Shown here piece after piece: positions 5,080 to 29,764 of a stretch of 64,000 nt of DNA (position 1 is its first letter; every line of letters begins with the position of its first letter). Both the position numbers and the translations under genes were made by a program. The notes beneath the pieces are model-generated. The model made no database searches. It saw only the letters and a program-made list of their open reading frames with translations, and was not told the DNA's origin. The stretch is from Candidatus Caccovivens sp. (GTDB taxonomy: Bacteria > Bacillota > Clostridia > Christensenellales > UBA1242): NCBI GenBank assembly GCA_051888935.1, contig JBJFCL010000039.1, positions 9,896 through 73,895 on the forward strand. The letters are read 5' to 3'.

Positions 5080-5201
5080 GTCTTAATGTTGCATAACCTT
5101 CAATTTTCTTCTGTCATATAATAATTTGGAAACAGGCTTTGACTTTTTAGGCAAAGATGATTTCAGAAACACAATTTTTTAGATTTTCAAAGGAGGATAT
5201 T

Positions 5202-6341
<1,140 letters not shown>

Positions 6342-6480: not shown

Positions 6481-6555
6481 GCGCCCATAGTGAAGTGGAT
6501 ATCACAAGCGTCTTCGGAACGCTTATGGAGGGTTCGAGTCCTTCTGGGCGCACCA
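6481..6555 (+). tRNA. tRNA-Arg (anticodon UCG), CCA encoded
   Basis: Cloverleaf folded by hand: acceptor GCGCCCA/TGGGCGC, anticodon stem AGCGT/ACGCT with loop CTTCGGA, T-arm GAGGG-TTCGAGT-CCTTC, 3' ACCA. Confidence 0.9.
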
Positions 6556-14847: not shown

Positions 14848-14950
14848 ATAAAAATCAAAAAAGACTATGCTTTTATTTTTTAATGTGTAAATGCTTGATT
14901 TTTGTCTTTTTTTGTTTTATTATATGTTTATAAACAATTTAGGAGAAATT

Positions 14951-15553
14951 ATGAAAAAAATAAAGCAGTTTTTTAGTGATTTTAAAGCATTCATTTCAAG
15001 AGGAAATGTGATTGACATGGCTGTCGGAGTTATCATAGGTGGTGCTTTTTCTGCCATTGTAACTGCCTTGACAAACAAAATTATTATGCCACTCATCAAT
15101 TTGTTGTTGTCTCTTGCCGGAGGAGCAGGTTTAGAATCTGCTCGTACAATTCTCGGAAACCCTGTCTACAACACACCAGGCGATGTTGCAAGCGGAATTA
15201 ACTGGGCATCAACAATTTATATTGATTGGGGTGCATTTATAACAGCAATAATTGATTTCTTGCTTATTGCATTTGTTCTTTTCACCATATTAAAAGTTAT
15301 GATGAGCGCGCAAGGTCTTTGGAAAAAAGGAATCAAAGAGCGCCCAACAAAAGAAGAAAGAAAGATTTTGAAAGCGGAAGGCGTAAATATGAAGGATTAT
15401 CGCGAAGTTATCGTTAAGACAGCTGAACTTCGTGAGAGAAACAAACCTGCACCACAGCCTCCAAAACCAACACAAGAACAACTTTTGACAGAGATATTGG
15501 CAGAACTTAAAAAACAAAATGAAGAAAAAGAGCACGAAGAAAAACAAGCATAA
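14951..15553 (+). CDS. mscL: large-conductance mechanosensitive channel MscL (long form)
   Basis: ATG at 14951 after TAGGAGAAATT. FKAFISRGNVIDMAVGVIIGGAFSAIVTALTNKIIMPLI is the diagnostic MscL TM1 region. At 200 aa it has a long loop and a Lys/Glu/Pro-rich C-terminal extension. Confidence 0.85.
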   Translation: MKKIKQFFSDFKAFISRGNVIDMAVGVIIGGAFSAIVTALTNKIIMPLINLLLSLAGGAGLESARTILGNPVYNTPGDVASGINWASTIYIDWGAFITAIIDFLLIAFVLFTILKVMMSAQGLWKKGIKERPTKEERKILKAEGVNMKDYREVIVKTAELRERNKPAPQPPKPTQEQLLTEILAELKKQNEEKEHEEKQA

Positions 15554-15811: not shown

Positions 15812-16207
15812 TTAGTCGTCGTGGCCATGGAATTCTGTAAGACGAATATTGTTTGCTTTGCGTTGTTCTTCCATGAGATTTGAGAACAAATCTCTTACAT
15901 AATATGGATTTTTGACATTAACAAGTCTCAAAGTTGGTTTGCTTTCATCGCTACTATACAAAGTCACAGTGCCACAATTAAGCATTTTCCCAAGTAAAGA
16001 CTGATGAAGAGAAATGTCGCAAATTCTATAAACATTGATTTCATCAATAACTGATGACAAGAATCCAATATCACAGAAAAGTTTTACCCAAGAACCTTGT
16101 TTTCTAATCAAGCGATAACGAGTAAAAGAAAGAGGCATACCCAAAAATCTTTTTCTGTCTTTCCAAATTAATTCTGCACCTTCTCCATACTTTCTTTCAA
16201 TATTCAT
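15812..16207 (-). CDS. bacterial PH-domain (bPH_2/YdbS-like) protein
   Basis: 131 aa. The KDRKRFLGMPLSFTRYRLIRK...GTVTLYSSD pattern is typical of bPH_2 proteins. Confidence 0.5.
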   Translation of the reverse strand: MNIERKYGEGAELIWKDRKRFLGMPLSFTRYRLIRKQGSWVKLFCDIGFLSSVIDEINVYRICDISLHQSLLGKMLNCGTVTLYSSDESKPTLRLVNVKNPYYVRDLFSNLMEEQRKANNIRLTEFHGHDD

Positions 16208-18173: not shown

Positions 18174-18202
18174 TTGACTTTTGAATGATGTTTTGATAAA
18201 AT
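18174..18202 (+). promoter_or_regulatory. near-consensus sigma-A promoter of the ESCRT-like operon
   Basis: TTGACT (18174-18179), 17-nt spacer, TAAAAT (18197-18202), 34 nt upstream of the first ATG. Confidence 0.6.
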
Positions 18203-18236
18203 TTAAGTAGCAGATTATTGGCATTTTAGGGGGAAT

Positions 18237-19061
18237 ATGGAAAACATCATCACTTTTAAAGGACAAAATGTACAGTTGTTTAGCAAAATGGCGGTGCAAA
18301 ATTATTCTGCAAAAACTGCAATTATTGTGCCTGAAACTCATAATGCTATTTTGGTGAAAGACGGGCAAATGCTTCAAACATTATCGTCTGGCAAGTATCT
18401 CATTGGCAAGTTTGTTGATGTTAAAAATGAATTGGAAAGCAATTTGGAAATTTTGTTTATGTCCAAGACTGCAAAACTTAAACTTATGTGGGGAACAGCC
18501 AACAAGTTTGTTATGTATGACTCCACACTTCAAGAAAACTATGGCCTAGGAATGAGTGGAGATTTTGATGTTCAAATTGGTGACCCAAGAAAATGCTATC
18601 TTTATCTCGTCGGTGCAGATAATGACCTTACAAGTGATGCGTTGCAAGAGCGTTTAATGTCCACAGTAGTTTCCACTTTGGAAAATATTGTGATTGAATA
18701 TGTTGAAAAAAACAAGGTGATGTTCAATCAAATTTCCGCTTGTAAGCGTGAAATTTCTGCACAAGCACAAAAGCAATTAAATCAAAAGCTTATGAGTGAC
18801 TATGGTATTGCGGTTTTTTCTTTCAATATTGCAAACATTATAATAGGTGAAGAAGATTTGCAAAGACTGAATCAACAATACAAACAACTCAAAAAAACAG
18901 ATAACTTTGTTTGTCGTGAATGTGGGGCGGTTTTGCATGAAAATGACAAATTTTGCTCTTCTTGCGGAAAGAGAGTTGAAATTGGCAAGAAATGTCCAAA
19001 TTGCTTTACAGAAAATGCAGATGATGCCAAGTTTTGTTCGTCTTGTGGACAAAAACTTTAA
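18237..19061 (+). CDS. SPFH/Band-7-like protein with two C-terminal zinc ribbons (COG4260/YdjI-like)
   Basis: RBS GGGGGA. IIVPETHNAILVKDGQMLQTLSSGKYLI, LEILFMSKTAKLKLMWGT, FDVQIGDPRKC and YGIAVFSFNIANI follow the YdjI-type SPFH pattern. The C-terminus has CRECG..CSSCG and CPNC..CSSCG. Confidence 0.7.
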   Translation: MENIITFKGQNVQLFSKMAVQNYSAKTAIIVPETHNAILVKDGQMLQTLSSGKYLIGKFVDVKNELESNLEILFMSKTAKLKLMWGTANKFVMYDSTLQENYGLGMSGDFDVQIGDPRKCYLYLVGADNDLTSDALQERLMSTVVSTLENIVIEYVEKNKVMFNQISACKREISAQAQKQLNQKLMSDYGIAVFSFNIANIIIGEEDLQRLNQQYKQLKKTDNFVCRECGAVLHENDKFCSSCGKRVEIGKKCPNCFTENADDAKFCSSCGQKL

Positions 19062-19072
19062 AGGAGGGGAAT

Positions 19073-19477
19073 ATGCTGTTTGTTTACATAATTATTATGA
19101 TCGCCATTTTGGGAGTTGCAATATTCTTTATTTGCAAAGAATACATAAAAAAAGATGACTCCGCAAATGAAGGCAGTCGAGGAATAATCAAAAACAAAAA
19201 AACCATTGAAAATATGGTGGCAAATGTGGAAAGTATAATTGTTTATGCTGACGGAAATGATGTGCTTTGTCATAGACTTGTTGAGCTCAAAGACGATATT
19301 CGCTTTTTCAATCCAAGCACCAACAGCAGAGTTGCCATTGTTGACACAAAAATTGCCAACAAATTGGACGACTTAAAGATAATGGTGGCAAAGGATAACA
19401 CCCAAGAAACTTGTTTTAGACTTTTGGAAGAAGTTGAGGCATATGTTTTGGAGCGTAAAAAGGAAGAAAAGAACTGA
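19073..19477 (+). CDS. small N-terminally membrane-anchored protein, unknown family
   Basis: ATG at 19073 lies 5 nt after AGGAGGGG; the ORF-track start at 19034 overlaps the upstream gene. A single TM (LFVYIIIMIAILGVAIFFI) is followed by a roughly 105-aa helical cytoplasmic part. Confidence 0.55.
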   Translation: MLFVYIIIMIAILGVAIFFICKEYIKKDDSANEGSRGIIKNKKTIENMVANVESIIVYADGNDVLCHRLVELKDDIRFFNPSTNSRVAIVDTKIANKLDDLKIMVAKDNTQETCFRLLEEVEAYVLERKKEEKN

Positions 19478-19836
19478 TGAAAAGACAATATGAAACATCA
19501 GAGAATGTATCATCCGAAGACGCAGAGAAGGTTCTTAAAGAACTCAGACTTGGTTATCTCAATTTGTCAGATGGTGCTTTCGAGCAAGCGAAAATGTGTT
19601 TTACACTTGCACTACAATATGACAGCAAATGTGCAGATGCTTATTGGGGATTGATGTTGGAAAAATTCCAAATCAAAAATGAAGATGTTTTGGAAACAGA
19701 ACCAGTCCTTTACAAAAGTGCACTTGCATTGCCAGAATGTCAAAATGCATTGCAGTTTGCCAACGAAAAACAACTTGCTCAATATCAAAACTTGTTGGAA
19801 AGAATAGAAAAAGTCAACGAAGGTGACAACTACTAG
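19477..19836 (+). CDS. small TPR-like helical protein
   Basis: The start overlaps the upstream stop (TGATG). LGYLNLSDGAFEQAKMCFTLALQYDSKCADAYWGLMLEKFQIK resembles the TPR-like segment at the N-terminus of the 1255-aa protein (VGAYELAREQKFNEAVAEFDKILSLYPLSFESFYGKCLAKHKIV). Confidence 0.5.
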   Translation: MKRQYETSENVSSEDAEKVLKELRLGYLNLSDGAFEQAKMCFTLALQYDSKCADAYWGLMLEKFQIKNEDVLETEPVLYKSALALPECQNALQFANEKQLAQYQNLLERIEKVNEGDNY

Positions 19837-19865
19837 AAAAGTATGGAGTGAAAAGAGGAGAGATT

Positions 19866-20477
19866 ATGTGGTGGCCATTTAAAAGAAACAAATTTAAGAA
19901 TTTAAATAGAGAGGACCTTGTAAATTCCATTTGTGAACTTGAACGACAAGAACGCACAGCGGAAGCAGAAGTGTTTCAAAAAATAAAGGAAATTGATGCA
20001 CTTGTGGAAAAAGGAAAGAAAGAGAAAAACAAGGATTTGCAATTGTTTTATGCAAAGAAAATTGCACACTTAAACGAAGAGAAACAAGTTTGCATGGAGC
20101 GAGGAATGTATTTGCTTTACAACATTCGTCTTATGAACAAACTCAAAGACGCTTATGACAGCAACACTTTCTTCAAAACACAAACCAAAGTGCCCCTTTC
20201 AGAATTGCTTGTTGACCAGAAGCGCTTGGCTAAGTTTTTGAACAATGCACTTGAAACAAGAATTGCTTCCGAAGACATACTCACAAGCGCAGACGAACTT
20301 TTTGCCGAAGTTCAGTCAGCATATGATGTGAGTCAACCAATTTATGGAGTTGGCAAAACAGAAGAAGAAATTTTGACTATGTTCGAAAAAGAAAATCAAC
20401 TTGTTGATGAGCAGGAACTTGCACAAGAAAAAACAAGTGAACCTGTAAAAAAAAGAAAAGCAAAAATGGAGGAATAA
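19866..20477 (+). CDS. ESCRT-III (Snf7/CHMP4-like) superfamily protein, paralog A
   Basis: ATG at 19866 after GAGGAG; the ORF-track GTG at 19848 is less likely. 203 aa: basic N-terminus (WWPFKRNKFK), long heptad helical hairpin (KIKEIDALVEKGKKEKNKDLQLFYAKKIAHLNEEKQ...), acidic helical C-terminal half. Confidence 0.5.
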   Translation: MWWPFKRNKFKNLNREDLVNSICELERQERTAEAEVFQKIKEIDALVEKGKKEKNKDLQLFYAKKIAHLNEEKQVCMERGMYLLYNIRLMNKLKDAYDSNTFFKTQTKVPLSELLVDQKRLAKFLNNALETRIASEDILTSADELFAEVQSAYDVSQPIYGVGKTEEEILTMFEKENQLVDEQELAQEKTSEPVKKRKAKMEE

Positions 20478-20480
20478 AAA

Positions 20481-21074
20481 ATGGGACTTTTCAAATCAAA
20501 ACAACAAAAAGAAATTGAGAAAAAGATGCTTATTAAGCGCACAATCAACACTATGAACAAGCAAATAAATCGCTTGGAAGACCAAAAACAAGTGTTTATT
20601 GATGCTGCAAAGAGGGCAAAACAAAAAGGATTGGACGCACAATTCAACTTGGCTCTCTCCGGCTACAAGATGACTGTTCAACAACAAAGAAGAGCACAAG
20701 AAATGCTTTTAAATTTTGAAATAACAGCGCAGATGAAAGATGTGACCATGATGACGAGCGAGTTCTTGCGTGGAATGAGTGATATTTCAAAAGAAATGAC
20801 CCGCCTTGCAGACGCAAAAGAATTTGCAAAAATTCAAGCTCAATTTGAAGAAGCTATGGCTGCCGTTGAAACTCAAACCGACCAAATGGACAATTTTATG
20901 GAGATGAGTCAAGAAACTTTCTACAATCAAAGCAAAGACAAGTCTGGAAAAATGTCAGACGAGGAATTGGAGAAGTTTATTATGGAGCAAGCATCTCAGG
21001 ACGAACTTTCTGCGGAACAAATTGACAAGGAAATGGAAGAACTTAAAAAGAAGATTCAAGACGAAAACAACTAA
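20481..21074 (+). CDS. ESCRT-III (CHMP1/Vps2-like) superfamily protein, paralog B
   Basis: RBS GGAGGAA. 197 aa. The N-terminus is MGLFKSKQQKE. Also present: AAKRAKQKG, a helix-rich core, FEEAMAAVETQTDQMDNFM, and an acidic tail ending SQDELSAEQIDKEMEELKKKI (MIM-like amphipathic helix). Confidence 0.65.
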   Translation: MGLFKSKQQKEIEKKMLIKRTINTMNKQINRLEDQKQVFIDAAKRAKQKGLDAQFNLALSGYKMTVQQQRRAQEMLLNFEITAQMKDVTMMTSEFLRGMSDISKEMTRLADAKEFAKIQAQFEEAMAAVETQTDQMDNFMEMSQETFYNQSKDKSGKMSDEELEKFIMEQASQDELSAEQIDKEMEELKKKIQDENN

Positions 21075-21117
21075 GAATTAACAACTAGTTCAATTAAAGA
21101 TATATAAAGGAAAAATT

Positions 21118-22248
21118 ATGACAGAGACCAGCATGAATGTCTTATCCGACACCTTTGACCTTTATATGAAAAAAGGCAAAGAAGCAAAAACAAAAGGAAA
21201 CATTTCTCTTGCAAAAAGAAATTTTCTTCTTGCAAGTCAGACAATGATGCAAATGGCGAAACAGAGCCAAGGCAAACTTAAAGAAGTGCGTATGGAGCGT
21301 GCTAGACGACTTGTTGAACTTTCTGACAATTTGACCAAAACTCCTGTTAAAAACAGCAAAGATGACAGTTCAAAAGAGGAAGATGAAGACATAAAAAAAT
21401 GGCAATCTGCACAAATTCCAAATATTAAATTTAGCGATGTTGCTGGACTTGACGATGTGAAAAAAGCCATCACAATTCGAATGATAAACCCCATCAAATA
21501 TCCAGACAAATACAAAATGTATGCAAAAAAGACTGGTGGTGGAGTTCTTTTGTATGGACCTCCTGGCACAGGAAAAACTATGATTGCAAAAGCAATAGCC
21601 AATGAAGTGGGTGCAAAGTTTTATGCTGTCAAAGGTTCGGATATTGTAAGCAAATGGGTTGGAGACAGCGAAAAGAATATCAACTCTCTTTTTGAGGAGG
21701 CAAACAAACAAGACCGTGCCATTATTTTTATTGATGAAATGGACAGTCTTATCGGCAAACGCGGTGTTGACACTCACAATGATAAGCGTGTTAACGAGTT
21801 CTTACAACAAATTGATGGCTTTGCTGGCAGAAATCCAAATCTCTTGCTTCTTGGGGCAACAAACCGACCTTGGGATATTGATAGTGCAGCGATGCGTTCG
21901 GGAAGATTTTCACAAAAGATTTATCTTCCTCTCCCAGATGCTCCTGCAAGAAAATTTATGTTGGAAAAGAACATGAAAGGCGTTCCGGTGTCAAAAGATT
22001 TTAATATTGACAAAATTGTGTCACAGACCGAGATGTACAGCGGAGCGGACATTGAAGAACTTTGTGACCGAGCCAAAGATGAACCGCTTTTAAAAGCCAT
22101 TGCCACAGACAGTGTTATCGCAGTGACTAATGAAGATTTTGACAGAGTGCTTGAAGTTTTTCCTCCAAGCGTCACTGCAAAAGAATTGGCGCAGTTTGAA
22201 AATTATAACAAAGATATCAACAAATTATTGTCGAAAAATAAGAAATAA
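21118..22248 (+). CDS. Vps4/CdvC-like AAA+ ATPase with N-terminal MIT-like domain
   Basis: 376 aa. N-terminal three-helix segment: LYMKKGKEAKTKGNISLAKRNFLLASQTMMQMAKQSQGKLKEVRMERARRLVELSDNL. Acidic linker, Walker A GPPGTGKT (21556-21579), Walker B IIFIDEMD (21721-21744), second region of homology ATNRPWDIDSAAMRSGRF, and a meiotic-clade-like C-terminus PPSVTAKELAQFENY. Confidence 0.8.
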   Translation: MTETSMNVLSDTFDLYMKKGKEAKTKGNISLAKRNFLLASQTMMQMAKQSQGKLKEVRMERARRLVELSDNLTKTPVKNSKDDSSKEEDEDIKKWQSAQIPNIKFSDVAGLDDVKKAITIRMINPIKYPDKYKMYAKKTGGGVLLYGPPGTGKTMIAKAIANEVGAKFYAVKGSDIVSKWVGDSEKNINSLFEEANKQDRAIIFIDEMDSLIGKRGVDTHNDKRVNEFLQQIDGFAGRNPNLLLLGATNRPWDIDSAAMRSGRFSQKIYLPLPDAPARKFMLEKNMKGVPVSKDFNIDKIVSQTEMYSGADIEELCDRAKDEPLLKAIATDSVIAVTNEDFDRVLEVFPPSVTAKELAQFENYNKDINKLLSKNKK

Positions 22249-22257
22249 AGGGATTTC

Positions 22258-25200
22258 ATGAGAGAAAGAGCGTGTAAAAATTGTGGAGGCAAGAGTTATG
22301 AGGTTGTTGGGCAAAATATGGTGAAATGCCAATTTTGCGGAACTCTTTATGTTGACGAACACGCATCTAAGGAAGAGGAAGTTCTTCTCGTTGGTGCTTA
22401 TGAACTTGCCAGAGAACAGAAATTCAATGAAGCAGTTGCAGAATTTGATAAAATTTTGTCGCTTTATCCTCTTTCTTTTGAAAGTTTTTATGGCAAATGT
22501 CTTGCGAAGCATAAAATTGTTTTTTACAACACGCGAACAAGCAAAAAACCTCGTTTTTTCGGAGATGAAATTCCATCAATTTTGCAAGATGAAGATTTTT
22601 TGTCAGCAGTAGAAAATGCTCCAACTGAGACGGCAAAAACATATCAAGAACAAGCAAAAAAGATAGAGAAATTGCATCAAAGTTACTTGGAAAACAAAGA
22701 CACGACTTTTGATGTGGTTTTGGCGGACCCAAAACTGGACAAACAAGACGCAATCACTTTGCAAGCGGTCGAAAAATTGAAAGAAGCAGGGTTGAAACCT
22801 TATTTCTTACAAACTGTCAAAGAAAATGAAGCAACCACTTTTTGTGCTCTGAAATCTTGCAAAGTTTTTGTGTTGTTTGCAAATGACAAAAAAGGTTATA
22901 CAAATGCAGAAATCAAAAATTTGTATGATAGATATTTATATTTTATTTCACTTAAACAAAAAGCAAAATCCAGTTTGATAATTGCTCTTGACAGCAATAA
23001 TATCTCTCTTGATGTTCTGCCAAAAAAAATAACAACTTGCAAAAGCGTACTTGACTTAAATTCAACTTCATTTTTGCCTGATTTTGTCACAAAAGTGAAA
23101 GAAGAGATGTCCAAAACCATTGAAGTGATGGCGAGAATTGACACTGTCACAATTGAGAAAGTGACACCTCAAAAGAAAGAATATGTTGATGTTGAAAGTA
23201 TCGAACCAACAGACCTTGGGCACTATCATGTCGACAACATTAAACTTACAGATGAGAACAAAATAAAATGGTTATATTTGTGTTTAAAGAATGGAGATTT
23301 TGAATCCGCACAAGAAGTTGTTGAAAGCGAACTTGAAAAAAATAGTGTTTCATCGGAAATTGTGTTTGCACAAATGCTTTTGAAACGCCAAATAAAAACG
23401 CCAGATGAATTTTTTTCTAGTATCACAAATTTTCAAGACAAAGAAGAAATCGACAATCTTTTACAAAATGCCAACAAAGAATTTGCAGAGTATTTTGTGG
23501 ATAGTTTTGAAAACCTGATTATCAAACTTGACAATGAAGAATATTATGAAAAATACCTCTTGTATCTTGCAGGATTTAACACACCAAATCGTGAAAACTT
23601 TGTAAACAAAGCAGAAGATAAAGCAGTTGAAACTTTGGACGAAGATTTGATTGATATGGTGCTCAAATGTTTCAAGGCAGATGAAGTTGACAAATTTATA
23701 AATTTTTATTATTTGCTTGCTCAAAAGAGCGATGACAAAACTTATTACGAAAAAATTTTGCAAATTGACGAAGGTCATGAACAAAGCAATTTAGCAATGC
23801 TTTTATCTCATTTTAAAAGCACAGAGGACATTTTGTCCTATCAAAATCGTGAGCAAATTGAAGGAGTGTTTAAATATTTAAACGAAGATGCTCGTGCTCA
23901 TTTTGTTTCTGCCGTGGTGGATTTGATTTTGCCTGTGGCTTTTTGTGACCTTGAAAAAGCGCAATCCCAACTTGATTTTTATTTAGCATATGTGACGGAT
24001 ACAAAAAAATTGGTGGAACTTTTGAGAGAAATAGCAATAAAATTTCAAAGAATGAGATTTTTTAAAATTGCCGAGCGTTATATTTCAATAGCAATTTCCA
24101 AAGAACCTAATAGAGCGGAATTTTATTGGTTTTTGATATCCATAAAAGCACATTGCGTAAACGACAACGAAATGATTATGTCCATGAACAAAATCACTCA
24201 GTTTCCAGAGTGGGAAACACTTCTTTCTGTTGCAAATGAAAGTGAAGCTGAAAAATATGCCAATATTGCAAGCAAAATAAAACTCTACGAAGGACAAAAA
24301 ATTCCTTTAAAAGAGGAAATGTTAGACAAAAAACAACTAACAGAAAAATTAAATGATTTCATAATCAGAAATGAAAAGATTTTGCTTGAAATACAGAAAC
24401 AAGACGAAAAATATGCGAAAGGTGTGCGTTATTACAGTATGCAAATTCAACCTTTCAAAAATTATATGGAAGAATTGTCCAAAATTGAAGAATTTAGAGA
24501 TTATGAAGCAGTTTTTTCTAAAATTTGTACTCGTTTGGAACTTTTAGATTTAAATCTTTCAACTTCAATAAATGTTTCTCATCTTATGGACAGAGATGAA
24601 GGCTTGAAAAAAATATATGAAAATGCGCCAAGCATAGACGAGGAAAAAAGCAAACAAAGAAACAATGCTTCACATAAAAAGTTTTGGAAGAATTTTTTGA
24701 TTGTATTTTTGGGATTTGTTCCACTTTTGTTTACAACACTTTTGTTGGTCGTGACAACAATTGCACCAAAAGAAGTGTACATGTATTTTAATCAAGATTT
24801 CTTAGTGTACAGTGTGATATATAGCGTTGTGTTTGGAATGGTTTGTTTCGCAGTTTATGCAATAAACAAACATCAACTTAGCAAAAAGTGGAAAGTAATA
24901 GACCTTTTGCTGTTTATGATTGCTTTTGTCAATCTTTTGATTCTAACAATCGGAATATATTTTTTGCCAGGCACAGTTGGAATCACAAATGCACACGAAT
25001 TTGATGTTTTGTTACACAATGCAAGTGCTTCCAATTTTGTTTTAGAAGGAGATATTGACCTCAAAGACATTGAATGGTCACCAGTAAACTTTACAGGTAC
25101 ATTGAACGGACAAAATCATAAAATCGAAAATTTGAAATTTAAATCACAAAAATCATTGTCACTATTTGGGAGAAATAGTGGAAATATTGCCAATCTTCAA

Positions 25201-26025
25201 ATTGTTTTGTCAGATAATGAATATAAAGAAATTACAAGTTTTGCGGGTGTTGCGACTGCAAATTATGGAACAATTTCAAATTGTGTTGTGAATGGAACAC
25301 TGACAATTCAAACCAATTTAGATGCAGTTATCGGCGGGCTTGTTGGGAAAAATTATGCAGATATTGAAAATTGTCAAACATCGTTGACCATAACTATTGA
25401 TGCAGGCTATAACGATGTTGTTGTTGGCGGACTTGTTGGAATTTCAACAGAGGGGAAAATTTTGCCAGTAGTAAAGAAAAACGCTTCCAACATCACACTA
25501 AATGCAATTATGACGGATTGCAAAAAATTTGTTTGTGGCGGACTTATTGGAAAAGTTTACAATCACCAAACTTTGTCACAAAACGAATCTCATGTTGATA
25601 TTGCGATTGCTGGTTCTTCTCAAAACACAAATGTTGGTGGTTTGTTTGGGGAAGAATATTTTGCTAGTGCTGACAATTATTCAACAGGCGAAATTGATTT
25701 AACAGATGTAAGTTCGACTGCTTGCGTTGGAGGAATAACTGGACAATTTAAAAATTCCAACCGTGAAATAACAATACTTCATTCATATTCCACGATTGAA
25801 ATAATTGGAGGTTCAAACATTGTCAAAGGTGGTCTTGTTGGAGAGATGGAAGGATATATTGATTCTTGTTTTTCCAATCAAACCATTGAACTATATGGAA
25901 CAAAGACAACTCATGCAGAGACAATAAACTGCGAAAAACTTTTAAGTGAAGTATATGACCCAAAATTCAACTTTTCTGAGGATATTTGGGAGATTTCAAA
26001 AACAAATTATCCAACACTTAAATAA
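22258..26025 (+). CDS. multidomain membrane protein: zinc ribbon, TIR-like region, TPR-like array, 3 TM helices, extracellular GLUG beta-helix
   Basis: 1255 aa. The zinc ribbon is CKNCGG..CQFCG. A possible TIR-like segment starts at TFDVVLADPKLDKQDAI...CKVFVLFAND. A long helical repeat region follows. The three TM helices lie at about 24685-24975. The C-terminus begins FTGTLNGQNHKIENL and then has six GG(L/I)xG repeats (IGGLVGKN, VGGLVGIS, CGGLIGKV, VGGLFGEE, VGGITGQF, KGGLVGEM). Confidence 0.7.
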   Translation: MRERACKNCGGKSYEVVGQNMVKCQFCGTLYVDEHASKEEEVLLVGAYELAREQKFNEAVAEFDKILSLYPLSFESFYGKCLAKHKIVFYNTRTSKKPRFFGDEIPSILQDEDFLSAVENAPTETAKTYQEQAKKIEKLHQSYLENKDTTFDVVLADPKLDKQDAITLQAVEKLKEAGLKPYFLQTVKENEATTFCALKSCKVFVLFANDKKGYTNAEIKNLYDRYLYFISLKQKAKSSLIIALDSNNISLDVLPKKITTCKSVLDLNSTSFLPDFVTKVKEEMSKTIEVMARIDTVTIEKVTPQKKEYVDVESIEPTDLGHYHVDNIKLTDENKIKWLYLCLKNGDFESAQEVVESELEKNSVSSEIVFAQMLLKRQIKTPDEFFSSITNFQDKEEIDNLLQNANKEFAEYFVDSFENLIIKLDNEEYYEKYLLYLAGFNTPNRENFVNKAEDKAVETLDEDLIDMVLKCFKADEVDKFINFYYLLAQKSDDKTYYEKILQIDEGHEQSNLAMLLSHFKSTEDILSYQNREQIEGVFKYLNEDARAHFVSAVVDLILPVAFCDLEKAQSQLDFYLAYVTDTKKLVELLREIAIKFQRMRFFKIAERYISIAISKEPNRAEFYWFLISIKAHCVNDNEMIMSMNKITQFPEWETLLSVANESEAEKYANIASKIKLYEGQKIPLKEEMLDKKQLTEKLNDFIIRNEKILLEIQKQDEKYAKGVRYYSMQIQPFKNYMEELSKIEEFRDYEAVFSKICTRLELLDLNLSTSINVSHLMDRDEGLKKIYENAPSIDEEKSKQRNNASHKKFWKNFLIVFLGFVPLLFTTLLLVVTTIAPKEVYMYFNQDFLVYSVIYSVVFGMVCFAVYAINKHQLSKKWKVIDLLLFMIAFVNLLILTIGIYFLPGTVGITNAHEFDVLLHNASASNFVLEGDIDLKDIEWSPVNFTGTLNGQNHKIENLKFKSQKSLSLFGRNSGNIANLQIVLSDNEYKEITSFAGVATANYGTISNCVVNGTLTIQTNLDAVIGGLVGKNYADIENCQTSLTITIDAGYNDVVVGGLVGISTEGKILPVVKKNASNITLNAIMTDCKKFVCGGLIGKVYNHQTLSQNESHVDIAIAGSSQNTNVGGLFGEEYFASADNYSTGEIDLTDVSSTACVGGITGQFKNSNREITILHSYSTIEIIGGSNIVKGGLVGEMEGYIDSCFSNQTIELYGTKTTHAETINCEKLLSEVYDPKFNFSEDIWEISKTNYPTLK

Positions 26026-26095: not shown

Positions 26096-26109
26096 GTTGA
26101 CAAGTCAAC
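26096..26109. promoter_or_regulatory. operator-like palindrome 1 upstream of the ABC exporter
   Basis: GTTGAC-AA-GTCAAC with perfect 6-bp arms; it embeds a TTGACA -35-like hexamer. Confidence 0.5.
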
Positions 26110-26135: not shown

Positions 26136-26149
26136 GTTGACAAGTCAAC
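26136..26149. promoter_or_regulatory. operator-like palindrome 2 upstream of the ABC exporter
   Basis: An identical GTTGACAAGTCAAC copy exactly 40 bp downstream of copy 1. Confidence 0.5.
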
Positions 26150-26223: not shown

Positions 26224-27963
26224 ATGTTTAAATTACTTAAAAATCTAAAATGGATTGATTATTTGTTTATATTGCTTGTCACGGCACTTATTGTACTGCA
26301 AGTTTTTCTTGATTTACGCCTGCCAGATTACACTGGAAACATTATGGCGGAACTTGGGAAAATGCAATTTGGTGTTGAAGTCAGTGTAAACACAATTTTG
26401 GTTAACGGTGGATATATGCTTGCTTGCGCTTTTGGAAGTTTGGCAAGTGCTGTCTGTGTGGGATTTTGCACAGCAAACATTTCATCGAGATTGGGATCTA
26501 ATCTGAGACAAAATGTTTACAACAAAATTCAAGGTTTTTCGTTGACAGAAATCAACAAATTTTCTACCGCAAGTCTTATTACTAGAACAACAAATGACAT
26601 AACTCAAATCCAGTCTTTTGTTGCAATGGGAATGCAGGCACTCATAAAAGCACCAATTCTTGCTGTTTGGTCTGTTTTAAAGATTTTAGACAAAAACTGG
26701 CAATGGTCTGTTGCAATTGGTGGAGCAATAGGATTTTTGCTTATCATGGTTCTTATCATCATCACTGTGGCTGTTCCTAAATTTAAGAAAATCCAAACTA
26801 TGACTGATGATGTAAACCGAATTACACGAGAGAATTTGACTGGAATCAGAGTTATCAGAGCGTCAAATGCCGAAGATTATCAAAATGACAAGTTTGAACA
26901 AAACAACAACAAATTGACAAAGACCAATTTGTTTGTCAATCGTGTTATGGGAATAATGAGTCCTGGAATGAACTTGCTCATGAGCGGTTTGTCGTTGGCA
27001 ATCTATTGGATTGGTGCTTATATTGTGAAGAACGAAGTCGATGTGGCAAATATGACAACATTTATGCAATATGGAATGCAGGTTATTATGGCATTTATGC
27101 TACTTATTATGATATTCATCTTGCTTCCAAGGACACTTGTCTCGGCAAAGAGATTGAACGAAGTTTTAGACACAAAGGAGAGTATTGTTTCAGGGGACTA
27201 TATTGACGACAATTCCGACGGGAAAGCATCAGTTGTGTTTGACCATGTATCTTTCAAATATCCAGAAGCAGATGAATATGTTTTGAAAGATATAAGTTTT
27301 GAAGCATACGAAGGCGAAACTGTGGCATTCATAGGTTCAACTGGGAGCGGAAAAAGCACTCTTATCAATCTTATTCCAAGACTCTATGATGCAACAGAGG
27401 GAAATATATACATTGACGGCGTTAATGTCAAAGATTATGACCTTAAAAACCTCAATAAAAAAATAGGTTATGTCCCACAACGCGGGGTGCTTTTTAGTGG
27501 CACAGTTAAGAGTAATATTGATTTTGGTGACAACAATGCAGATGATGAGACTGTCAAAAACGCAATAAAAGTTGCTCAGGCATCAAACTTTGTTTCACGA
27601 ATGAGTGATGGCATAAACAGTCCTATTGCACAAGGCGGAACGAATGTTTCAGGTGGACAAAAACAAAGACTTTCTATTGCAAGAGCGGTTGCAAGAAAGC
27701 CAGAAATCTTTATTTTTGATGATAGTTTTTCAGCGTTGGATTATAAAACTGACCGAAAACTTAGAAGTGCACTCAAAAAACACACTCAAAAAGTGACCAA
27801 ATTTATTGTTGCTCAGCGTATCGGCACAATCAAAGACGCAGACAAAATCATAGTTTTAGACAACGGAAACATGGTTGGCATAGGCACGCATGAACAGTTG
27901 CTTCAAAATTGCTCAGTTTATCAAGAAATAGCACTATCACAACTTTCAAAGGAGGAATTGTAA
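26224..27963 (+). CDS. ABC exporter half-transporter (TMD-NBD), degenerate-site subunit
   Basis: 579 aa with 6 TM helices and an NBD. Walker A GSTGSGKST, signature VSGGQKQR. Walker B is IFIFDDSFSALD, with Asp where the catalytic Glu normally sits. Confidence 0.85.
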   Translation: MFKLLKNLKWIDYLFILLVTALIVLQVFLDLRLPDYTGNIMAELGKMQFGVEVSVNTILVNGGYMLACAFGSLASAVCVGFCTANISSRLGSNLRQNVYNKIQGFSLTEINKFSTASLITRTTNDITQIQSFVAMGMQALIKAPILAVWSVLKILDKNWQWSVAIGGAIGFLLIMVLIIITVAVPKFKKIQTMTDDVNRITRENLTGIRVIRASNAEDYQNDKFEQNNNKLTKTNLFVNRVMGIMSPGMNLLMSGLSLAIYWIGAYIVKNEVDVANMTTFMQYGMQVIMAFMLLIMIFILLPRTLVSAKRLNEVLDTKESIVSGDYIDDNSDGKASVVFDHVSFKYPEADEYVLKDISFEAYEGETVAFIGSTGSGKSTLINLIPRLYDATEGNIYIDGVNVKDYDLKNLNKKIGYVPQRGVLFSGTVKSNIDFGDNNADDETVKNAIKVAQASNFVSRMSDGINSPIAQGGTNVSGGQKQRLSIARAVARKPEIFIFDDSFSALDYKTDRKLRSALKKHTQKVTKFIVAQRIGTIKDADKIIVLDNGNMVGIGTHEQLLQNCSVYQEIALSQLSKEEL

Positions 27964-27964
27964 A

Positions 27965-29764
27965 ATGCCACCAATGGGAAAAATGCATGTAACAGAAAAA
28001 GCAGAAAAGGGCACATTCAAAAAATCTATGGGAAAACTGCTCAATTATTGCAAAAAATATTGGGTTTGGATTGTTGTATCAATGATTTTGGGAGCAATTG
28101 CCACAGTTTTTCATATCATAGGTCCTAACAAAATTAGCGAAATGACCAATTTAATAAATCAAGGTCTGTATATCGGCGATATGGAAGCGGTACTTGGAGA
28201 AATCACAAAGATTGCAGTATTTTTGCTTTGCATTTATTTGATAGGAGCCGTTCTTTCATATTTGCAACATTATATTACCGTAACCGTAACCCAAAAAACT
28301 GTAAAGCGTTTTAGACAAGATATTTCCTACAAAATCAATCGACTTCCGCTCAACTATTTTGACACTCATTTGTATGGTGATGTGTTAAGCAGAGTAACAA
28401 ACGATGTTGACACGATTGGTCAAAGTCTCAACCAAAGTATTGGCAGTTTAATTTCAAATGTAATAATGTTCTTTGGTGTGCTTATCATGATGTTTGTGAC
28501 TGAGTGGATAATGGCGCTGACTGTCATAGCCACAACCATTTTAGGTTTTGGATTTGCACTGATATTTATGGCAAAATCTCAGAAATATTTCAATCAAAAT
28601 CAAAAGAATTTGGGAGAAATGAATTCTCATATTGAAGAAATCTATTCTGGACACAATGTTGTTCAACTTTTCAATGCACAGGGACAGACAGGCAAAGAAT
28701 TTAAGAAAATCAACAAAAATCTTTTAAACACAGGTTGGAAATCACAGTTTATTTCTGGAATTATGGGACCAATAATGAACTTCGTTGGAAATTTTGGTTA
28801 TGTTGCAGTTTGTATTGTTGGTGCAGTTCTTGCCAGCCAAAGAGGAATAGGATACTTTGGCACTATTGTTGCTTTTATGATTTATGTTCGCTTGTTTACA
28901 AATCCACTTTCTCAAATAGCACAATGTTTGACGAGTTTGCAATCTGCTTCTGCTGCCAGCAAGAGAGTTTTTGAATTTTTGGAAGAAAAGGAACTCTCAA
29001 ATGAAAGCAACAAAACCTTTTCTATTGAAAATGTCAAGGGTGATGTTAAATTTGAACATATAAAGTTTGGTTACAATGAAAACAAAACAATCATAAAAGA
29101 CTTTTCTGCTGACATCAAAGCGGGGCAAAAAGTGGCAATAGTTGGTCCAACTGGTGCTGGCAAAACAACACTTGTAAATCTATTGATGAGATTCTATGAA
29201 GTCAACTCTGGGGATATTAAAATTGATGGAATTTCCATCAAGGATATCAAGCGTGAGCAGGTTCATAAATTGTTTGGAATGGTTTTGCAAGATACTTGGT
29301 TGTTTGAAGGCACAATCAGAGAAAATTTGCGATATAACAATCCAGATGTCACAGATGAACAAATTGTTGAAGCGTGCAAGAATGTTGGAGTTGACCACTT
29401 TATTCAAACACTTTCTCACGGTTATGACACTGTAATTGATGATGCTGTAAATCTTTCGGCGGGACAAAAACAACTTTTGACCATTGCAAGGACCATGATT
29501 GCCAATCGTCCTATGATAATATTGGACGAGGCGACAAGTTCTGTTGACACCCGTACAGAAGTTTTGTTGCAAAATGCAATGGATAAAGTCATGGAAGGAA
29601 GGACATCGTTCATAATCGCTCATAGATTGTCGACCATAAAAAATGCAGATATAATTTTGGTCCTTAAAGACGGAGATATCATAGAGAGTGGTAATCATGA
29701 AGAACTATTAGCTCAAAATGGTTTTTACGCCGAACTTTACAACAGTCAGTTTGAAGAGGAATAA
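27965..29764 (+). CDS. ABC exporter half-transporter (TMD-NBD), consensus-site subunit
   Basis: 599 aa, starting 1 nt after the upstream stop. Walker A GPTGAGKTT and Walker B MIILDEATSSVD with the catalytic Glu. The signature is the variant LSAGQKQ. Confidence 0.85.
   Translation: MPPMGKMHVTEKAEKGTFKKSMGKLLNYCKKYWVWIVVSMILGAIATVFHIIGPNKISEMTNLINQGLYIGDMEAVLGEITKIAVFLLCIYLIGAVLSYLQHYITVTVTQKTVKRFRQDISYKINRLPLNYFDTHLYGDVLSRVTNDVDTIGQSLNQSIGSLISNVIMFFGVLIMMFVTEWIMALTVIATTILGFGFALIFMAKSQKYFNQNQKNLGEMNSHIEEIYSGHNVVQLFNAQGQTGKEFKKINKNLLNTGWKSQFISGIMGPIMNFVGNFGYVAVCIVGAVLASQRGIGYFGTIVAFMIYVRLFTNPLSQIAQCLTSLQSASAASKRVFEFLEEKELSNESNKTFSIENVKGDVKFEHIKFGYNENKTIIKDFSADIKAGQKVAIVGPTGAGKTTLVNLLMRFYEVNSGDIKIDGISIKDIKREQVHKLFGMVLQDTWLFEGTIRENLRYNNPDVTDEQIVEACKNVGVDHFIQTLSHGYDTVIDDAVNLSAGQKQLLTIARTMIANRPMIILDEATSSVDTRTEVLLQNAMDKVMEGRTSFIIAHRLSTIKNADIILVLKDGDIIESGNHEELLAQNGFYAELYNSQFEEE

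Follow-up and report, generated by a model that had tools for sequence, protein, structure and literature searches.

A putative operon in an uncultured gut Clostridia bacterium that pairs a Snf7-type ESCRT-III protein with a Vps4-like ATPase, an SPFH protein and a large receptor-like membrane protein

Introduction

According to recent reviews, the pairing of Snf7/ESCRT-III proteins with Vps4 is absent from bacteria. Sporadic bacterial Snf7-clade and PspA proteins that adjoin AAA+ ATPases have been described, together with Vps4-like ATPases that were transferred to bacteria, and ATP-dependent membrane remodelling has been proposed for them (Ravi et al. 2024, PMC11237479). In the contexts given there, a TM-Snf7 protein accompanies an ABC transporter and PBPB-OmpA, a TPR+6TM protein takes the place of Snf7 beside a Vps4-like ATPase, and a double AAA protein occurs with PspA (PMC11237479). 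In Bacillus subtilis, the SPFH protein YdjI is experimentally required for bringing PspA to the membrane (PMC8581546). SPFH proteins also occur in the archaeal “Meth_adaptin” ESCRT loci, which combine an SPFH, coiled-coil and Zn-ribbon protein with Zn-ribbon or TM-linked putative cargo/receptor proteins (Makarova et al. 2024, PMC10936438).

Here, we analysed a gene cluster from an uncultured gut bacterium (Bacillota, class Clostridia) in which genes for an SPFH scaffold and a large, receptor-like membrane protein accompany the pair formed by a Snf7-type ESCRT-III protein and a Vps4-like ATPase. No description of this cluster was found in the searchable literature, nor was the combination of an SPFH/Zn-ribbon protein, two helical proteins, a MIT-AAA protein and a Zn-ribbon/TPR/TIR-like protein found in the main text and supplement of PMC11237479.

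Results

Layout of the locus

The window, i.e., the whole stretch of 64,000 nucleotides that was analysed, contains seven co-directional open reading frames on the + strand (g1–g7, 18237–26025), the coordinates of which were checked in the window:

18174–18202, + strand, sigma-70-like promoter TTGACT-17-TAAAAT with extended -10 TG (10/12 matches; consensus match only)
18237–19061, + strand, g1, 274 aa
19073–19477, + strand, g2, 134 aa
19477–19836, + strand, g3, 119 aa
19866–20477, + strand, g4, 203 aa
20481–21074, + strand, g5, 197 aa
21118–22248, + strand, g6, 376 aa
22258–26025, + strand, g7, 1255 aa

The genes are as tightly packed as a preliminary description had reported, with gaps of 11 nt (g1/g2), 3 nt (g4/g5), 43 nt (g5/g6) and 9 nt (g6/g7) and a CTGATG stop/start overlap between g2 and g3 at 19475–19479, and a purine-rich ribosome-binding site precedes every start except that of g3. 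The mechanical reading frame of g4 begins with GTG at 19848; position 19866 was chosen because homologues begin with MWWPF and a GGAG-type ribosome-binding site lies upstream of it. The promoter-like site named in the preliminary description is indeed present, inside the 103-nt gap between a divergent SDR gene and g1 that is the sole sizeable intergenic gap of the cluster, but such sites are only slightly commoner than in shuffled sequence (49 found vs 36 ± 6), so that the match by itself is weak evidence. A convincing + strand terminator was not found within the cluster, again as claimed before: the lone internal match, at 24201, is one of eight where 7.5 are expected by chance. This layout suggests that g1–g7 form one operon with a single transcript.

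The ESCRT-III-like proteins and the ATPase

Profile and motif evidence identifies g5 as a genuine ESCRT-III protein of Snf7 type, not PspA type. Its family profile matches CHMP2A (1.7e-6) and CHMP3 (0.005) and also CHMP1B and CdvB in the PDB, 23 of 78 family members match Pfam Snf7, and no match to PspA_IM30 or PspA/Vipp1 was obtained in Pfam and PDB profile searches. The family HMM further recovers the ESCRT-III gene of a Thermococcus ESCRT locus (E 3e-25), which g5 itself matches by tblastn with 26% identity over 95% coverage (E 2e-9). In g5, MGLFKSK forms the N-terminal motif, the core is basic, the linker acidic, and the C-terminal helix amphipathic and MIM1-like; a loose pattern for this last motif fits 37 of the 78 family members.

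The architecture of g6 in an AF2 model supports a Vps4-type ATPase, with a MIT-like three-helix bundle (aa 6–70), a disordered linker (76–98), one classical AAA cassette (AAA E 1.7e-42), a lid in which no beta-domain insertion is seen in the model, and a C-terminal helix (354–373; Vps4_C 18.5–21.4 bits). The N-terminal profile matches MIT domains (2mpk 3e-6, Sulfolobus CdvC MIT 0.005) as well as the N-termini of archaeal Vps4 proteins (7e-6 and 2e-9), and residues 24–365 align to positions 26–366 of the 370 in the NCBIfam CdvC model. The protein retains intact Walker A (GPPGTGKT) and Walker B (IFIDEMD) motifs, and its pore loop (SKWVGDSEK) and arginines (RSGRF) are likewise preserved. Membership of the Vps4 clade is not clear, and the ATPase domain is as near to Cdc48 D2 as to Vps4: the CDC48 model gives 214 bits vs 207 for CdvC, the ATPase and lid find their best-scoring counterparts in p97 D2, AFG2, katanin and fidgetin-like proteins, and Foldseek ranks Metallosphaera sedula Vps4 (TM 0.83) and p97 D2 nearly equally. 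In a small and poorly resolved neighbour-joining tree, g6 joins neither the sampled archaeal Vps4 clade nor the CDC48 clade. The earlier label of a Vps4-like MIT-AAA+ ATPase thus holds for the domain order, less so for phylogenetic placement. Contact between the MIM1-like helix of g5 and the MIT-like bundle of g6 is suggested at motif level only.

A second ESCRT-III-like protein had been claimed for g4, which we regard as an unproven candidate paralogue. Its helical-hairpin-like AF2 model (pLDDT 63; hairpin H15–52/H56–100, then H118–153 and H166–189) has no significant Foldseek match; the top 40, none of them significant, include Asgard ESCRT-IIIB, CdvB2, CdvB and CHMP2A/3. Profile similarity of g4 to the g5 family is weak: hhalign gives a collinear alignment of 163 columns with E 0.0056 and a probability of 6.5%.

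The membrane-associated partners

Domain profiles confirm g1 as a YdjI-type SPFH protein (Band_7_1, E 9e-15) with a C-terminal double zinc ribbon (DZR 3.9e-11; Zn_Ribbon_1 in two stretches), as previously described, and the hydropathy scan detected no TM segment in this presumably soluble protein. The TM anchor proposed for g2 is likewise found, as an N-terminal helix (aa 1–26) followed by a cytoplasmic helical tail; domain and family profile searches gave no family assignment. Weak similarity to TPR_8 was found in g3, which by blastp matches g7 at aa 340–412 and 602–679 (E 1e-4 and 3e-5) and also resembles the helical region of TIR proteins from a distant locus (L083) and a 1257-aa protein from another (L086). 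By these matches, g3 is a free-standing TPR-like “YWGL” module, paralogous to a module that is present three times in g7, a relationship that the preliminary description had missed.

The predicted topology of g7 is receptor-like, its N-terminal region lying in the cytoplasm and its GLUG region outside the cell, on either side of three TM helices:

22258–22392, + strand, zinc ribbon, aa 1–45 (CxxC...CxxC in alignment)
22708–23157, + strand, TIR-like domain, aa ~151–300 (homology to Zn-ribbon/TPR/TIR_2 proteins)
24685–24990, + strand, TM region with helices at aa ~810–838, 846–871 and 877–911 (hydropathy scan)
24994–26022, + strand, GLUG ectodomain, aa 913–1255 (Pfam Glug)

Membrane crossing and the GLUG region had been noted before, and the ectodomain scanned alone matches Pfam Glug with E 3.4e-6 (27.5 bits, cut-off 20.5). 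The C-terminus probably lies outside, because an odd number of helices follows the 800-aa N-terminal region. That region, a Zn-ribbon/TPR-like/TIR-like module, had been overlooked; it is homologous to Zn-ribbon/TPR/TIR_2 proteins of a distant locus (L064; E 2e-20 and 2e-15) and to proteins of L083, and Pfam TIR does not match g7 itself. The W..NEW motif of the TIR proteins from these two loci is replaced by KNLY/KHLF throughout the window clade, and judged from this alignment the TIR-like domain of g7 has lost its catalytic Glu and would be catalytically dead.

Conservation and genomic setting

We surveyed 80 species-representative genomes that carry the cluster, across which order and strand are conserved: g5 was found in place in 80, g6 in 79, g4 in 77, g1 in 76, g7 in 74, g2 in 59 and g3 in 54, gene order is preserved in ~75, and in 79 the Snf7 gene lies directly beside the MIT-AAA gene. 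Linkage is therefore strongly conserved, which removes the objection that it might not extend to related genomes. Mean identity is 81–84% for g4, g5 and g6 (at least 51 species; g4 83% over 51) vs 58% for g1 and 44% for g7, the fastest-evolving gene of the cluster. Within g7, the zinc ribbon is best conserved (82% vs 35–53% elsewhere), and the ectodomain averages 35% identity among orthologues. A slowly changing g4–g6 core beside a variable g7 ectodomain is consistent with a motor that is held constant and a sensor that diversifies.

The neighbourhood in the window consists of housekeeping genes and is not a defence island, and the cluster has the same gene as its downstream neighbour in 57 of the 80 species. 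No division or sporulation genes adjoin the cluster in the annotated part of the window, and nothing was found that bears on the sporulation or engulfment role suggested previously. The window version contains no protease or nuclease and no recognisable effector, relatives were not found in phage or viral collections, and PADLOC returned no system-level match to the core.

Among distant relatives, the Snf7 and MIT-AAA genes adjoin in seven of eight informative contexts (contigs of 40–67% GC), and the SPFH Band_7_1 gene, which shares the cluster in near relatives, is often present as well. Some of these relatives encode Zn-ribbon/TPR/TIR_2 proteins with an intact W..NEW motif, others Trypsin_2 proteases positioned after the ATPase gene, and in some Snf7 is fused to a RuvB-like ATPase and a NERD nuclease or to an FtsK/HerA-type ATPase; the FtsK-type fusion matches SspH at 1e-53. 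Among relatives, a BrxL-like gene and a TerD cluster also adjoin the core. With active TIR, trypsin, NERD and FtsK/RuvB modules in the family, envelope surveillance or conflict becomes the likelier biology.

Discussion

Function of the cluster

We consider it reasonably probable that the operon encodes a bacterial ESCRT-type machine for ATP-driven membrane remodelling or repair tied to envelope surveillance. From the observed homology, domain architecture, linkage and conservation we infer interactions, trigger and physiological outcome as follows. The Snf7-type g5, probably with its divergent neighbour g4, would use its basic N-terminal core to polymerise on the membrane from the cytoplasmic side. 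A membrane patch would be marked and organised by the SPFH/zinc-ribbon protein g1 with the help of the small TM protein g2, on the model of B. subtilis YdjI, with YdjG/H, recruiting PspA. The patch may be linked to the cell surface by g7, through its GLUG ectodomain, three TM helices and a cytoplasmic part made up of the zinc ribbon, three TPR-like modules and the dead TIR-like domain, of which g3 would supply a free TPR-like copy. The MIT-like bundle of the g6 hexamer could then dock on the conserved MIM1-like C-terminal helix of g5, the KWVG pore loop would thread subunits, and ATP would power remodelling or disassembly of the polymer, so that a damaged or marked patch may be constricted, sealed or shed.

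The active TIR proteins, trypsin-like proteases and RuvB-NERD/FtsK fusions of relatives make it probable that the family began as a conflict (anti-invader) system or overlaps with one, and the window clade looks like a domesticated version without an effector. That the cluster is chiefly an anti-phage or abortive-infection system, in which the receptor/TIR module senses attack while ESCRT-III, Vps4 and SPFH disrupt the membrane or shield the cell from the system's own effectors, is unlikely. Such an active or decaying defence system would account for these modules, for the BrxL-like gene and TerD cluster, and for the rapid evolution of the g7 ectodomain, and g6 resembles IetA-type ATPases (PADLOC models, E 1e-38). 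Against it, the likeness to IetA is generic AAA similarity (NCBIfam IetA, 110 bits against a cut-off of 510), the catalytic Glu of the TIR domain is gone, and the core matches no PADLOC system. Housekeeping neighbours, a shared downstream gene that suggests vertical inheritance instead of a patchy defence island, and the lack of relatives in the phage and viral collections searched point the same way, and a conflict role in the window clade is doubtful because neither a protease, a nuclease nor another recognisable effector is encoded.

A housekeeping machine for cytokinesis, vesicle budding or sporulation membrane fission in this Clostridia lineage, comparable to archaeal Cdv or EV-forming ESCRT, seems distinctly improbable. 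The highly conserved core motor and stable chromosomal context would suit it, archaeal ESCRT systems perform such jobs (PMC10936438, PMC7619361), and the Snf7::FtsK fusions of relatives could be understood as clearing DNA from a membrane neck as it closes; the TIR, trypsin and NERD links of relatives, however, are not division-like, nor are division or sporulation genes annotated beside the cluster. Very improbable, in our view, is that g6 is a Cdc48-like unfoldase for quality control or extraction of soluble or membrane proteins, with the helical proteins as adaptors or substrates and an ESCRT likeness that is ancestral only. The scores of its ATPase domain and lid and its position outside the archaeal Vps4 clade are in line with such an unfoldase, but an authentic archaeal ESCRT-III, itself next to a Vps4 gene, aligns with g5 from end to end, g5 retains the N-terminal motif, charge asymmetry and C-terminal helix, and the MIT-like domain of g6 matches those of archaeal Vps4. 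The SPFH and TM protein partners, moreover, argue for action at the membrane, as in the remodelling machine that we favour.

Comparison with known systems

IetAS, which consists of the AAA ATPase IetA and the S8 protease IetS, likewise joins a classical AAA protein to a serine protease, cf. the Trypsin_2 genes after the ATPase in relatives, whereas the window cluster has no protease. IetA of a Pseudomonas putida plasmid (L098) has no MIT-like domain match and no Snf7 neighbour, and the tree, with its unresolved backbone, pairs IetA with a haloarchaeal ATPase, not with the g6 family.

With eukaryotic ESCRT-III/VPS4, the cluster shares the MIT domain, single AAA cassette and Vps4_C-like helix of g6 and, in g5, an MGLF N-terminus, basic core, acidic tail and MIM1-like terminal helix; among solved structures, CHMP2A and CHMP3 match the g5 family best. 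In contrast to the eukaryotic system, the cluster shows no link to ESCRT-0/I/II, Vta1 or ubiquitin, the predicted lid of g6 lacks the beta-domain insertion, and ESCRT-III is represented by no more than one or two paralogues.

In the B. subtilis ydjFGHI module for envelope stress, which comprises PspA, YdjG/YdjH and YdjI, a Band_7_1 SPFH protein with a C-terminal zinc ribbon is also co-encoded with an ESCRT-III-superfamily protein and with integral membrane partners, one of which is a Zn-ribbon protein (PMC11237479). The polymer there is of PspA type, whereas g5 is of Snf7 type, and the Ydj system includes a TPM-domain protein (YdjH), absent here, and no counterpart of the dedicated MIT-AAA ATPase.

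Archaeal ESCRT, represented by the euryarchaeal “main clade” locus on a Thermococcus peptonophilus plasmid (L095), shares the adjoining ESCRT-III and MIT-AAA genes; the Thermococcus ESCRT-III and g5 both have an N-terminal ...(F/W)KSK..KEIE.K motif and a C-terminal amphipathic helix, and the MIT-like domain profile of g6 matches archaeal Vps4 N-termini. The present cluster differs in that its host is a bacterium, its ATPase domain groups apart from the sampled archaeal Vps4s, and it has, in place of wH/ESCRT-II-like, adaptin-appendage, kinase and phosphatase components, a TIR-like/TPR-like/GLUG receptor and a YdjI-type SPFH protein.

Operon structure and conservation

The seven open reading frames of the operon are co-directional and encode, in order, an SPFH protein (g1), a small transmembrane protein (g2), a TPR-like protein (g3), a helical candidate (g4), a Snf7-type protein (g5), an MIT-AAA ATPase (g6) and a receptor-like protein (g7). 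The main features, in a window of 34% GC, are:

18174-18202: promoter-like site TTGACT-17-TAAAAT (extended -10 TG), lying between the divergent SDR gene and g1
18237-26025, + strand: genes g1-g7

The tight junctions of the preliminary description were confirmed from the coordinates: g1 and g2 are 11 nt apart, the stop of g2 and the start of g3 overlap in CTGATG, and gaps of 3, 43 and 9 nt separate g4/g5, g5/g6 and g6/g7, respectively. Purine-rich ribosome-binding sites precede six of the seven starts, and the true start of g4 is most likely the ATG at 19866 (MWWPF...), because all homologues begin there. No convincing terminator was found inside the cluster (8 predicted, 7.5 expected), as had been noted at first reading. 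The single near-consensus promoter proposed there is present as a site, but such matches barely exceed shuffled sequences in this AT-rich DNA (49 vs 36 +/- 6), and its function as the promoter of the operon is therefore plausible, not proven.

A locus survey was seeded with a six-sequence g5 alignment, since broader g5 alignments had no conserved stretch, and covered 80 species-representative genomes of uncultured gut Clostridia, including Ca. Caccovivens, Ca. Coproplasma and Christensenella-like MAGs. Gene order and strand are the same across these genomes, so the arrangement is not chance, and the linkage of g6 to the ESCRT-III gene is kept in 79 of the 80 species loci.

Table. Presence of each gene among the 80 species-representative genomes, and mean identity to the window copy over the 51 species with all seven genes.
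Gene: presence; mean identity
g1 (SPFH): 76; 58%
g2 (small transmembrane protein): 59; 64%
g3 (TPR-like): 54; 56%
g4 (helical candidate): 77; 83%
g5 (Snf7-type): 80; 84%
g6 (MIT-AAA): 79; 81%
g7 (receptor-like): 74; 44%

Conservation within g7 is uneven, at 82% for the zinc ribbon and 35% for the ectodomain. The pattern is that of a conserved motor combined with a fast-diversifying outward-facing part, and the zinc ribbon is likely the interface of g7 to the core.

The surrounding genes are housekeeping in nature (MscL, tRNAs, an ABC exporter pair, TypA, DnaB, GltX), and 57 of the 80 species keep the downstream ABC gene in synteny. Several further features of the window were recorded:

1890-3887, - strand: TraG/VirD4-type coupling protein (T4SS-DNA_transf, 1.8e-50)
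5157-6341, + strand: collagen-triple-helix-repeat protein
14891-15553, + strand: MscL-like channel, judged by eye from the sequence, some 3 kb ahead of the operon
15812-16207, - strand: small open reading frame after the MscL-like one
26096-26109 and 26136-26149: 14-bp palindrome GTTGACAAGTCAAC, present twice
26224-29764: ABC exporter pair
33636-44681, + strand: one open reading frame of 3681 aa, a giant uncharacterised protein with no Pfam match at E<=1e-5

The genes at 1890-3887 and 5157-6341 lie near a tRNA-Arg at 6481 and may mark the remnant or edge of a conjugative element. The neighbourhood of the MscL-like gene is envelope-related. The first palindrome copy overlaps the -35 hexamer of a promoter-like site at 26097, upstream of the exporter pair, and both copies are probably operator sites for a repressor.

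The ESCRT-III-like proteins

As a single sequence, g5 matched nothing in direct Pfam, NCBIfam, PADLOC or PDB searches, and its homology emerged only from family profiles. The g5 family comprises 339 clusters at 50% identity. A profile built from 78 members matched CHMP2A in the PDB (E 1.7e-6, residues 8-143), with an alignment that covers the hairpin region (alpha1-alpha2), followed by CHMP3 (0.005), CHMP1B and CdvB. Pfam Snf7 (PF03357) was matched individually by 23 of the 78 members (best 1e-6). The window g5 itself falls under the threshold of this model, as does a genuine archaeal ESCRT-III protein from Thermococcus (20.5 bits) used for calibration. A tblastn search with g5 led to the ESCRT-III gene on a Thermococcus peptonophilus plasmid (26% identity, 95% coverage, E 2e-9), which stands in a typical euryarchaeal ESCRT locus with a S/T kinase, Vps4 and PP2C; the Thermococcus ESCRT-III scores E 3e-25 against the g5-family HMM. 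The two proteins have an N-terminal motif in common (MVRLWKSKEEKEIERK in g5, MGLFKSKQQKEIEKK in Thermococcus), as well as a basic core, an acidic linker and a C-terminal amphipathic helix. Across the g5 family, the first 60 aa contain 25% K/R, and the linker contains 25% D/E and 5% K/R. The terminal helix is of the type I..(L/M)..LKK, a loose pattern that fits 37 of the 78 members, and is predicted to be a MIM1-like motif. Judged from the profile matches, the Thermococcus relationship and the shared features, and given that the archaeal protein scores likewise low on Pfam Snf7, g5 is an ESCRT-III protein of the Snf7 type.

The second helical protein, g4, gave no match in direct Pfam, NCBIfam and PADLOC scans or in a single-sequence PDB search, and its profile retrieved no ESCRT-III protein from the PDB. 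Against the g5 family, hhalign gives a collinear alignment of low significance (E 0.0056, probability 6.5%). The AF2 model of g4 (mean pLDDT 63) contains a hairpin at 15-52/56-100 (pLDDT about 80-85) followed by three helices; Foldseek found no significant match for it (best E 0.19), and the top 40 include Asgard ESCRT-IIIB, CdvB2, CdvB, CHMP2A/3 and Vipp1. A Thermococcus 202-aa hypothetical protein was considered as a g4 relative and set aside, the g4 HMM score (E 0.014 among 331 ORFs) being too weak. The initial proposal of two ESCRT-III-like proteins thus stands for g5, with g4 a candidate only for a divergent paralogue. A PspA-type identity was rejected for both: neither g4 nor g5 matches PspA_IM30 (PF04012), which is also missing among the families listed for the 78 g5-family members, and PDB profile searches with both proteins returned no PspA or Vipp1 chain at E<=10.

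The MIT-AAA ATPase

The g6 protein matches Pfam AAA in one stretch (E 1.7e-42), together with AAA_lid_3, and the motifs GPPGTGKT, IIFIDEMD, SKWVGDSEK and RSGRF are readable, with Walker A/B, aromatic pore loop and arginine fingers intact. The Vps4_C family (PF09336) is borderline against a cut-off of 21.3 bits, at 18.5 bits with the whole protein and 21.4 bits with the C-terminal fragment; many close orthologues carry a precomputed match, and for calibration the Thermococcus Vps4 scores 35.8 bits and the Halomicrobium Vps4-like protein 18.3 bits. In the AF2 model (pLDDT 71), a three-helix bundle at 6-70 (helices 6-26, 29-49 and 53-70, pLDDT about 80-87) is followed by a disordered linker (76-98), the AAA fold with its lid, and a terminal helix (354-373); the beta-domain insertion is absent from the predicted lid.

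The N-terminus of g6 as a lone sequence matched neither the PDB nor Pfam. A profile of 17 members, however, matched the MIT domain of an oomycete chitin synthase (2mpk, 3e-6), the Sulfolobus CdvC MIT domains (2w2u, 0.005; 2v6y, 0.04) and the VPS4A/B MITs (0.2-1). TPR designs also score against this profile, so the MIT signal is partly a generic helical-repeat one. Pfam MIT is matched by three of the 17 members (best 3e-4), and the profile itself matches the N-termini of the Thermococcus Vps4 (7e-6) and the Halomicrobium protein (2e-9). With an MIT-like bundle, a linker, a single AAA cassette, a lid and a terminal helix, the architecture of g6 is that of Vps4.

Placement by sequence relationship is another matter. 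The NCBIfam CdvC model aligns with residues 24-365 over positions 26-366 of 370 at 207 bits, far under its equivalog cut-off, and the CDC48 model scores 214 bits. Foldseek on the full g6 model, which confirms no more than the AAA fold, because the MIT domain is not separable, put p97 D2 about level with Metallosphaera sedula Vps4; for the lid and C-terminus, the top-scoring matches are p97 D2, AFG2, katanin and fidgetin-like proteins. In a neighbour-joining tree of 21 AAA modules (265 columns, 200 bootstraps), built without eukaryotic, crenarchaeal or Asgard Vps4, katanin or PAN sequences, the Thermococcus and Halomicrobium proteins and the first ATPase of the distant locus L089 formed a 100% clade, and CDC48 D1 and D2 a 94% clade. 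The g6 family fell outside both, with its own support at 15-52% and a poorly supported backbone. Of the early description as a Vps4-like MIT-AAA+ ATPase, the architecture with its MIT-like bundle holds up, and membership of the Vps4/CdvC clade is not established. IetA and TRIP13 were discarded as identities of g6, the resemblance being generic AAA similarity.

Orthologues of g6 vary in form. The one in locus L070 (2439-4550) is a tandem fusion of 704 aa in which both the AAA cassette and the Vps4_C stretch occur twice. Those of L062, L074, L061 and others are extended at the C-terminus by about 110-150 aa that match no family.

SPFH, membrane-anchored and receptor-like components

The first gene encodes a soluble SPFH protein (Band_7_1, E 9e-15, 55.3 bits vs a cut-off of 24) with two C-terminal zinc ribbons (Zn_Ribbon_1, DZR and Zn_ribbon_3 above cut-offs). 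B. subtilis YdjI is reported to have the same architecture (PMC11237479), which bears out the YdjI-like assignment made at first reading; likewise, the single N-terminal transmembrane helix of g2 agrees with its supposed membrane anchoring. The g3 protein is a small TPR-like module that is paralogous to two internal g7 segments (E 3e-5 and 1e-4) and resembles the region ahead of the TIR domain in related proteins.

The 1255-aa g7 begins with a zinc ribbon, a TPR-like module similar to g3 and a TIR_2-homologous region. The TIR-like region is similar to the stand-alone Zn-ribbon/TPR/TIR proteins of the Coproplasma-type locus L064 (E 2e-20 and 2e-15); the alignment with one of these TIR_2 proteins (E 2e-20) spans residues 6-391 of g7, which also aligns with the TIR proteins of the distant loci L083 and L087. 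No Pfam TIR match (PF13676 / PF01582) was obtained with residues 1-347. The catalytic Glu motif, W..NEW in the L064 and L083 proteins, is replaced by KNLY, KHLF or KHIY in the window g7 and nine orthologues, which probably makes the TIR-like domain an inactive scaffold. Next come a long helical stretch with two more g3-like modules, three hydrophobic helices at about 810-911 and a C-terminal GLUG region (27.5 bits), in keeping with the transmembrane GLUG protein described initially. We infer that the C-terminus lies outside the cell, because the number of helices is odd.

Distant relatives and defence-related modules

More distant members of the g5 family (24-35% identity) lie on contigs of 40-67% GC, and a g6-like MIT-AAA gene adjoins the g5-family gene in seven of eight informative cases. 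Band_7_1 genes recur in the distant clusters L083, L086 and L087. Around this core, L083 has a 589-aa Zn-ribbon/TPR/TIR protein, a second AAA, a Sel1-trypsin protein and a Snf7::RuvB-like fusion, L086 a Snf7::FtsK fusion, a further Snf7 gene and a 1257-aa LRR_5 protein, and L087 a Snf7::RuvB::NERD fusion, a trypsin and a TIR_2 + DUF6273 protein. The Coproplasma-type locus L064 carries two TIR_2 proteins between g5 and g6 and a Trypsin_2 after g6, and a BrxL-like gene adjoins the cluster in L062. The label "TLR-like" for the proteins at the g7 position of L086 and L087 was toned down after a crude hydropathy scan, which gave no transmembrane segment for the L087 protein and, for that of L086, a single one located after the LRR.

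Some of these loci are of interest in their own right. The Snf7/MIT-AAA/SPFH/TIR/trypsin cluster of L083 (1-17812, GCA_964368715.1) lies directly beside a TerD cluster with a cation P-type ATPase, four TerD genes and the Ter-associated biosynthetic neighbours C-C_Bond_Lyase, ATPgrasp_Ter and PRTase_2. On a 64% GC contig, L089 (261-4659) encodes two g4-like proteins followed by an AAA ATPase that joins the Vps4s of Thermococcus and Halomicrobium at 100%, and after it a g5-like protein and a g6-like ATPase; by sequence, the locus appears to hold two adjacent ESCRT-III/ATPase pairs that differ in type. The Halomicrobium salinisoli plasmid locus (L096, 5284-7266), where a 225-aa hypothetical protein without a match to the g4 or g5 profiles lies directly upstream of the 430-aa MIT-like AAA ATPase, looks like a haloarchaeal ESCRT-type locus; its flanks include a PQQ beta-propeller gene some 3.6 kb upstream and, some 3.7 kb downstream, a PP2C gene.

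Against PADLOC-DB 2.0, g1-g5 match nothing and only g6 is matched, through generic AAA similarity to the IetA/TRIP13 models; the core is not recognised as any described system. The accessory proteins of the relatives correspond to PADLOC entries at the domain level only (TIR, RT-protease-like trypsin, SspH-like FtsK, PglW). No relatives were found in viral collections (IMG/VR, GenBank phages), and a phage or mobile origin was dismissed, the sole plasmid match being the archaeal Thermococcus ESCRT locus.

Proposed function and alternatives

We consider it reasonably probable that g1-g7 form an ESCRT-like membrane remodelling or repair system. In such a system, g5, probably with g4, would polymerise on the inner face of the membrane at a site recruited and delimited by g1 with g2 and/or g7, in parallel to the action of YdjI with YdjG/H on PspA in B. 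subtilis (PMC8581546). The g7 protein would couple this site to the cell surface, the MIT-like domain of g6 would bind the C-terminal MIM1-like helix of g5, and ATP would be used to remodel the polymer, which could result in membrane sealing, constriction or shedding.

With their TIR, trypsin and NERD modules, the relatives speak for a connection of the family to envelope surveillance or biological conflict. That the system is primarily an anti-phage one seems unlikely to us. Compared with its relatives, the window clade has lost recognisable effectors, and it looks vertically inherited; a domesticated role in envelope maintenance is thus most likely here. A function in division, vesicle formation or sporulation is rather improbable; the preliminary description had thought a role in sporulation or engulfment conceivable, but nothing among the window genes examined links the operon to sporulation. 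Lowest of all we place a non-membrane unfoldase, which we think very improbable.

A bolder reading, which we hold only tentatively and as a whole consider doubtful, is that the operon represents the first bona fide ESCRT machine native to Bacteria, a Snf7-type polymer with an MIT-AAA disassemblase, and belongs to a widespread and previously unrecognised family of receptor-coupled membrane-scission systems. Zn-ribbon/TPR/TIR proteins, some fused to transmembrane segments and variable C-terminal domains (GLUG, LRR, DUF6273), would sense envelope attack and trigger an SPFH-organised, Vps4-like-driven excision or sealing of the affected membrane. If true, this would be a bacterial counterpart of eukaryotic ESCRT plasma-membrane repair, wired to TIR immune signalling.

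Significance and comparison with known systems

At least 80 species carry the conserved operon, in which a Snf7-type protein and an MIT-AAA ATPase are encoded together, and its distant relatives reside on contigs that differ widely in GC. It provides a concrete bacterial system in which ATP-driven ESCRT-III remodelling is testable. It bears on the origin and horizontal spread of ESCRT and on the link between SPFH scaffolds and ESCRT-III across the domains of life, and the TIR, trypsin and NERD modules of the relatives suggest that prokaryotic immunity may include an arm for membrane repair or scission. Its hosts are uncultured Clostridia abundant in the gut, where the system may play a part in vesicle production or in resistance to phages.

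A full-text literature search returned no description of the cluster, which is not to say that it is unpublished. Ravi et al. (2024) reported sporadic bacterial links of Snf7/PspA with AAA+ proteins as well as Vps4 transfers, in contexts unlike that of the window (PMC11237479). Current syntheses are at odds with the window cluster, among them a 2025 review which stated that a Vps4-like ATPase appears absent in bacteria, leaving open how bacterial ESCRT-III-superfamily polymers are disassembled (PMC7619361). Among known systems, archaeal ESCRT loci, like the window, pair ESCRT-III with an MIT-AAA ATPase, and the archaeal "Meth_adaptin" type also includes an SPFH/coiled-coil/Zn-ribbon protein (PMC10936438). 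The B. subtilis ydjFGHI operon has the same SPFH type and the same logic, but its polymer is PspA and it has no ATPase.
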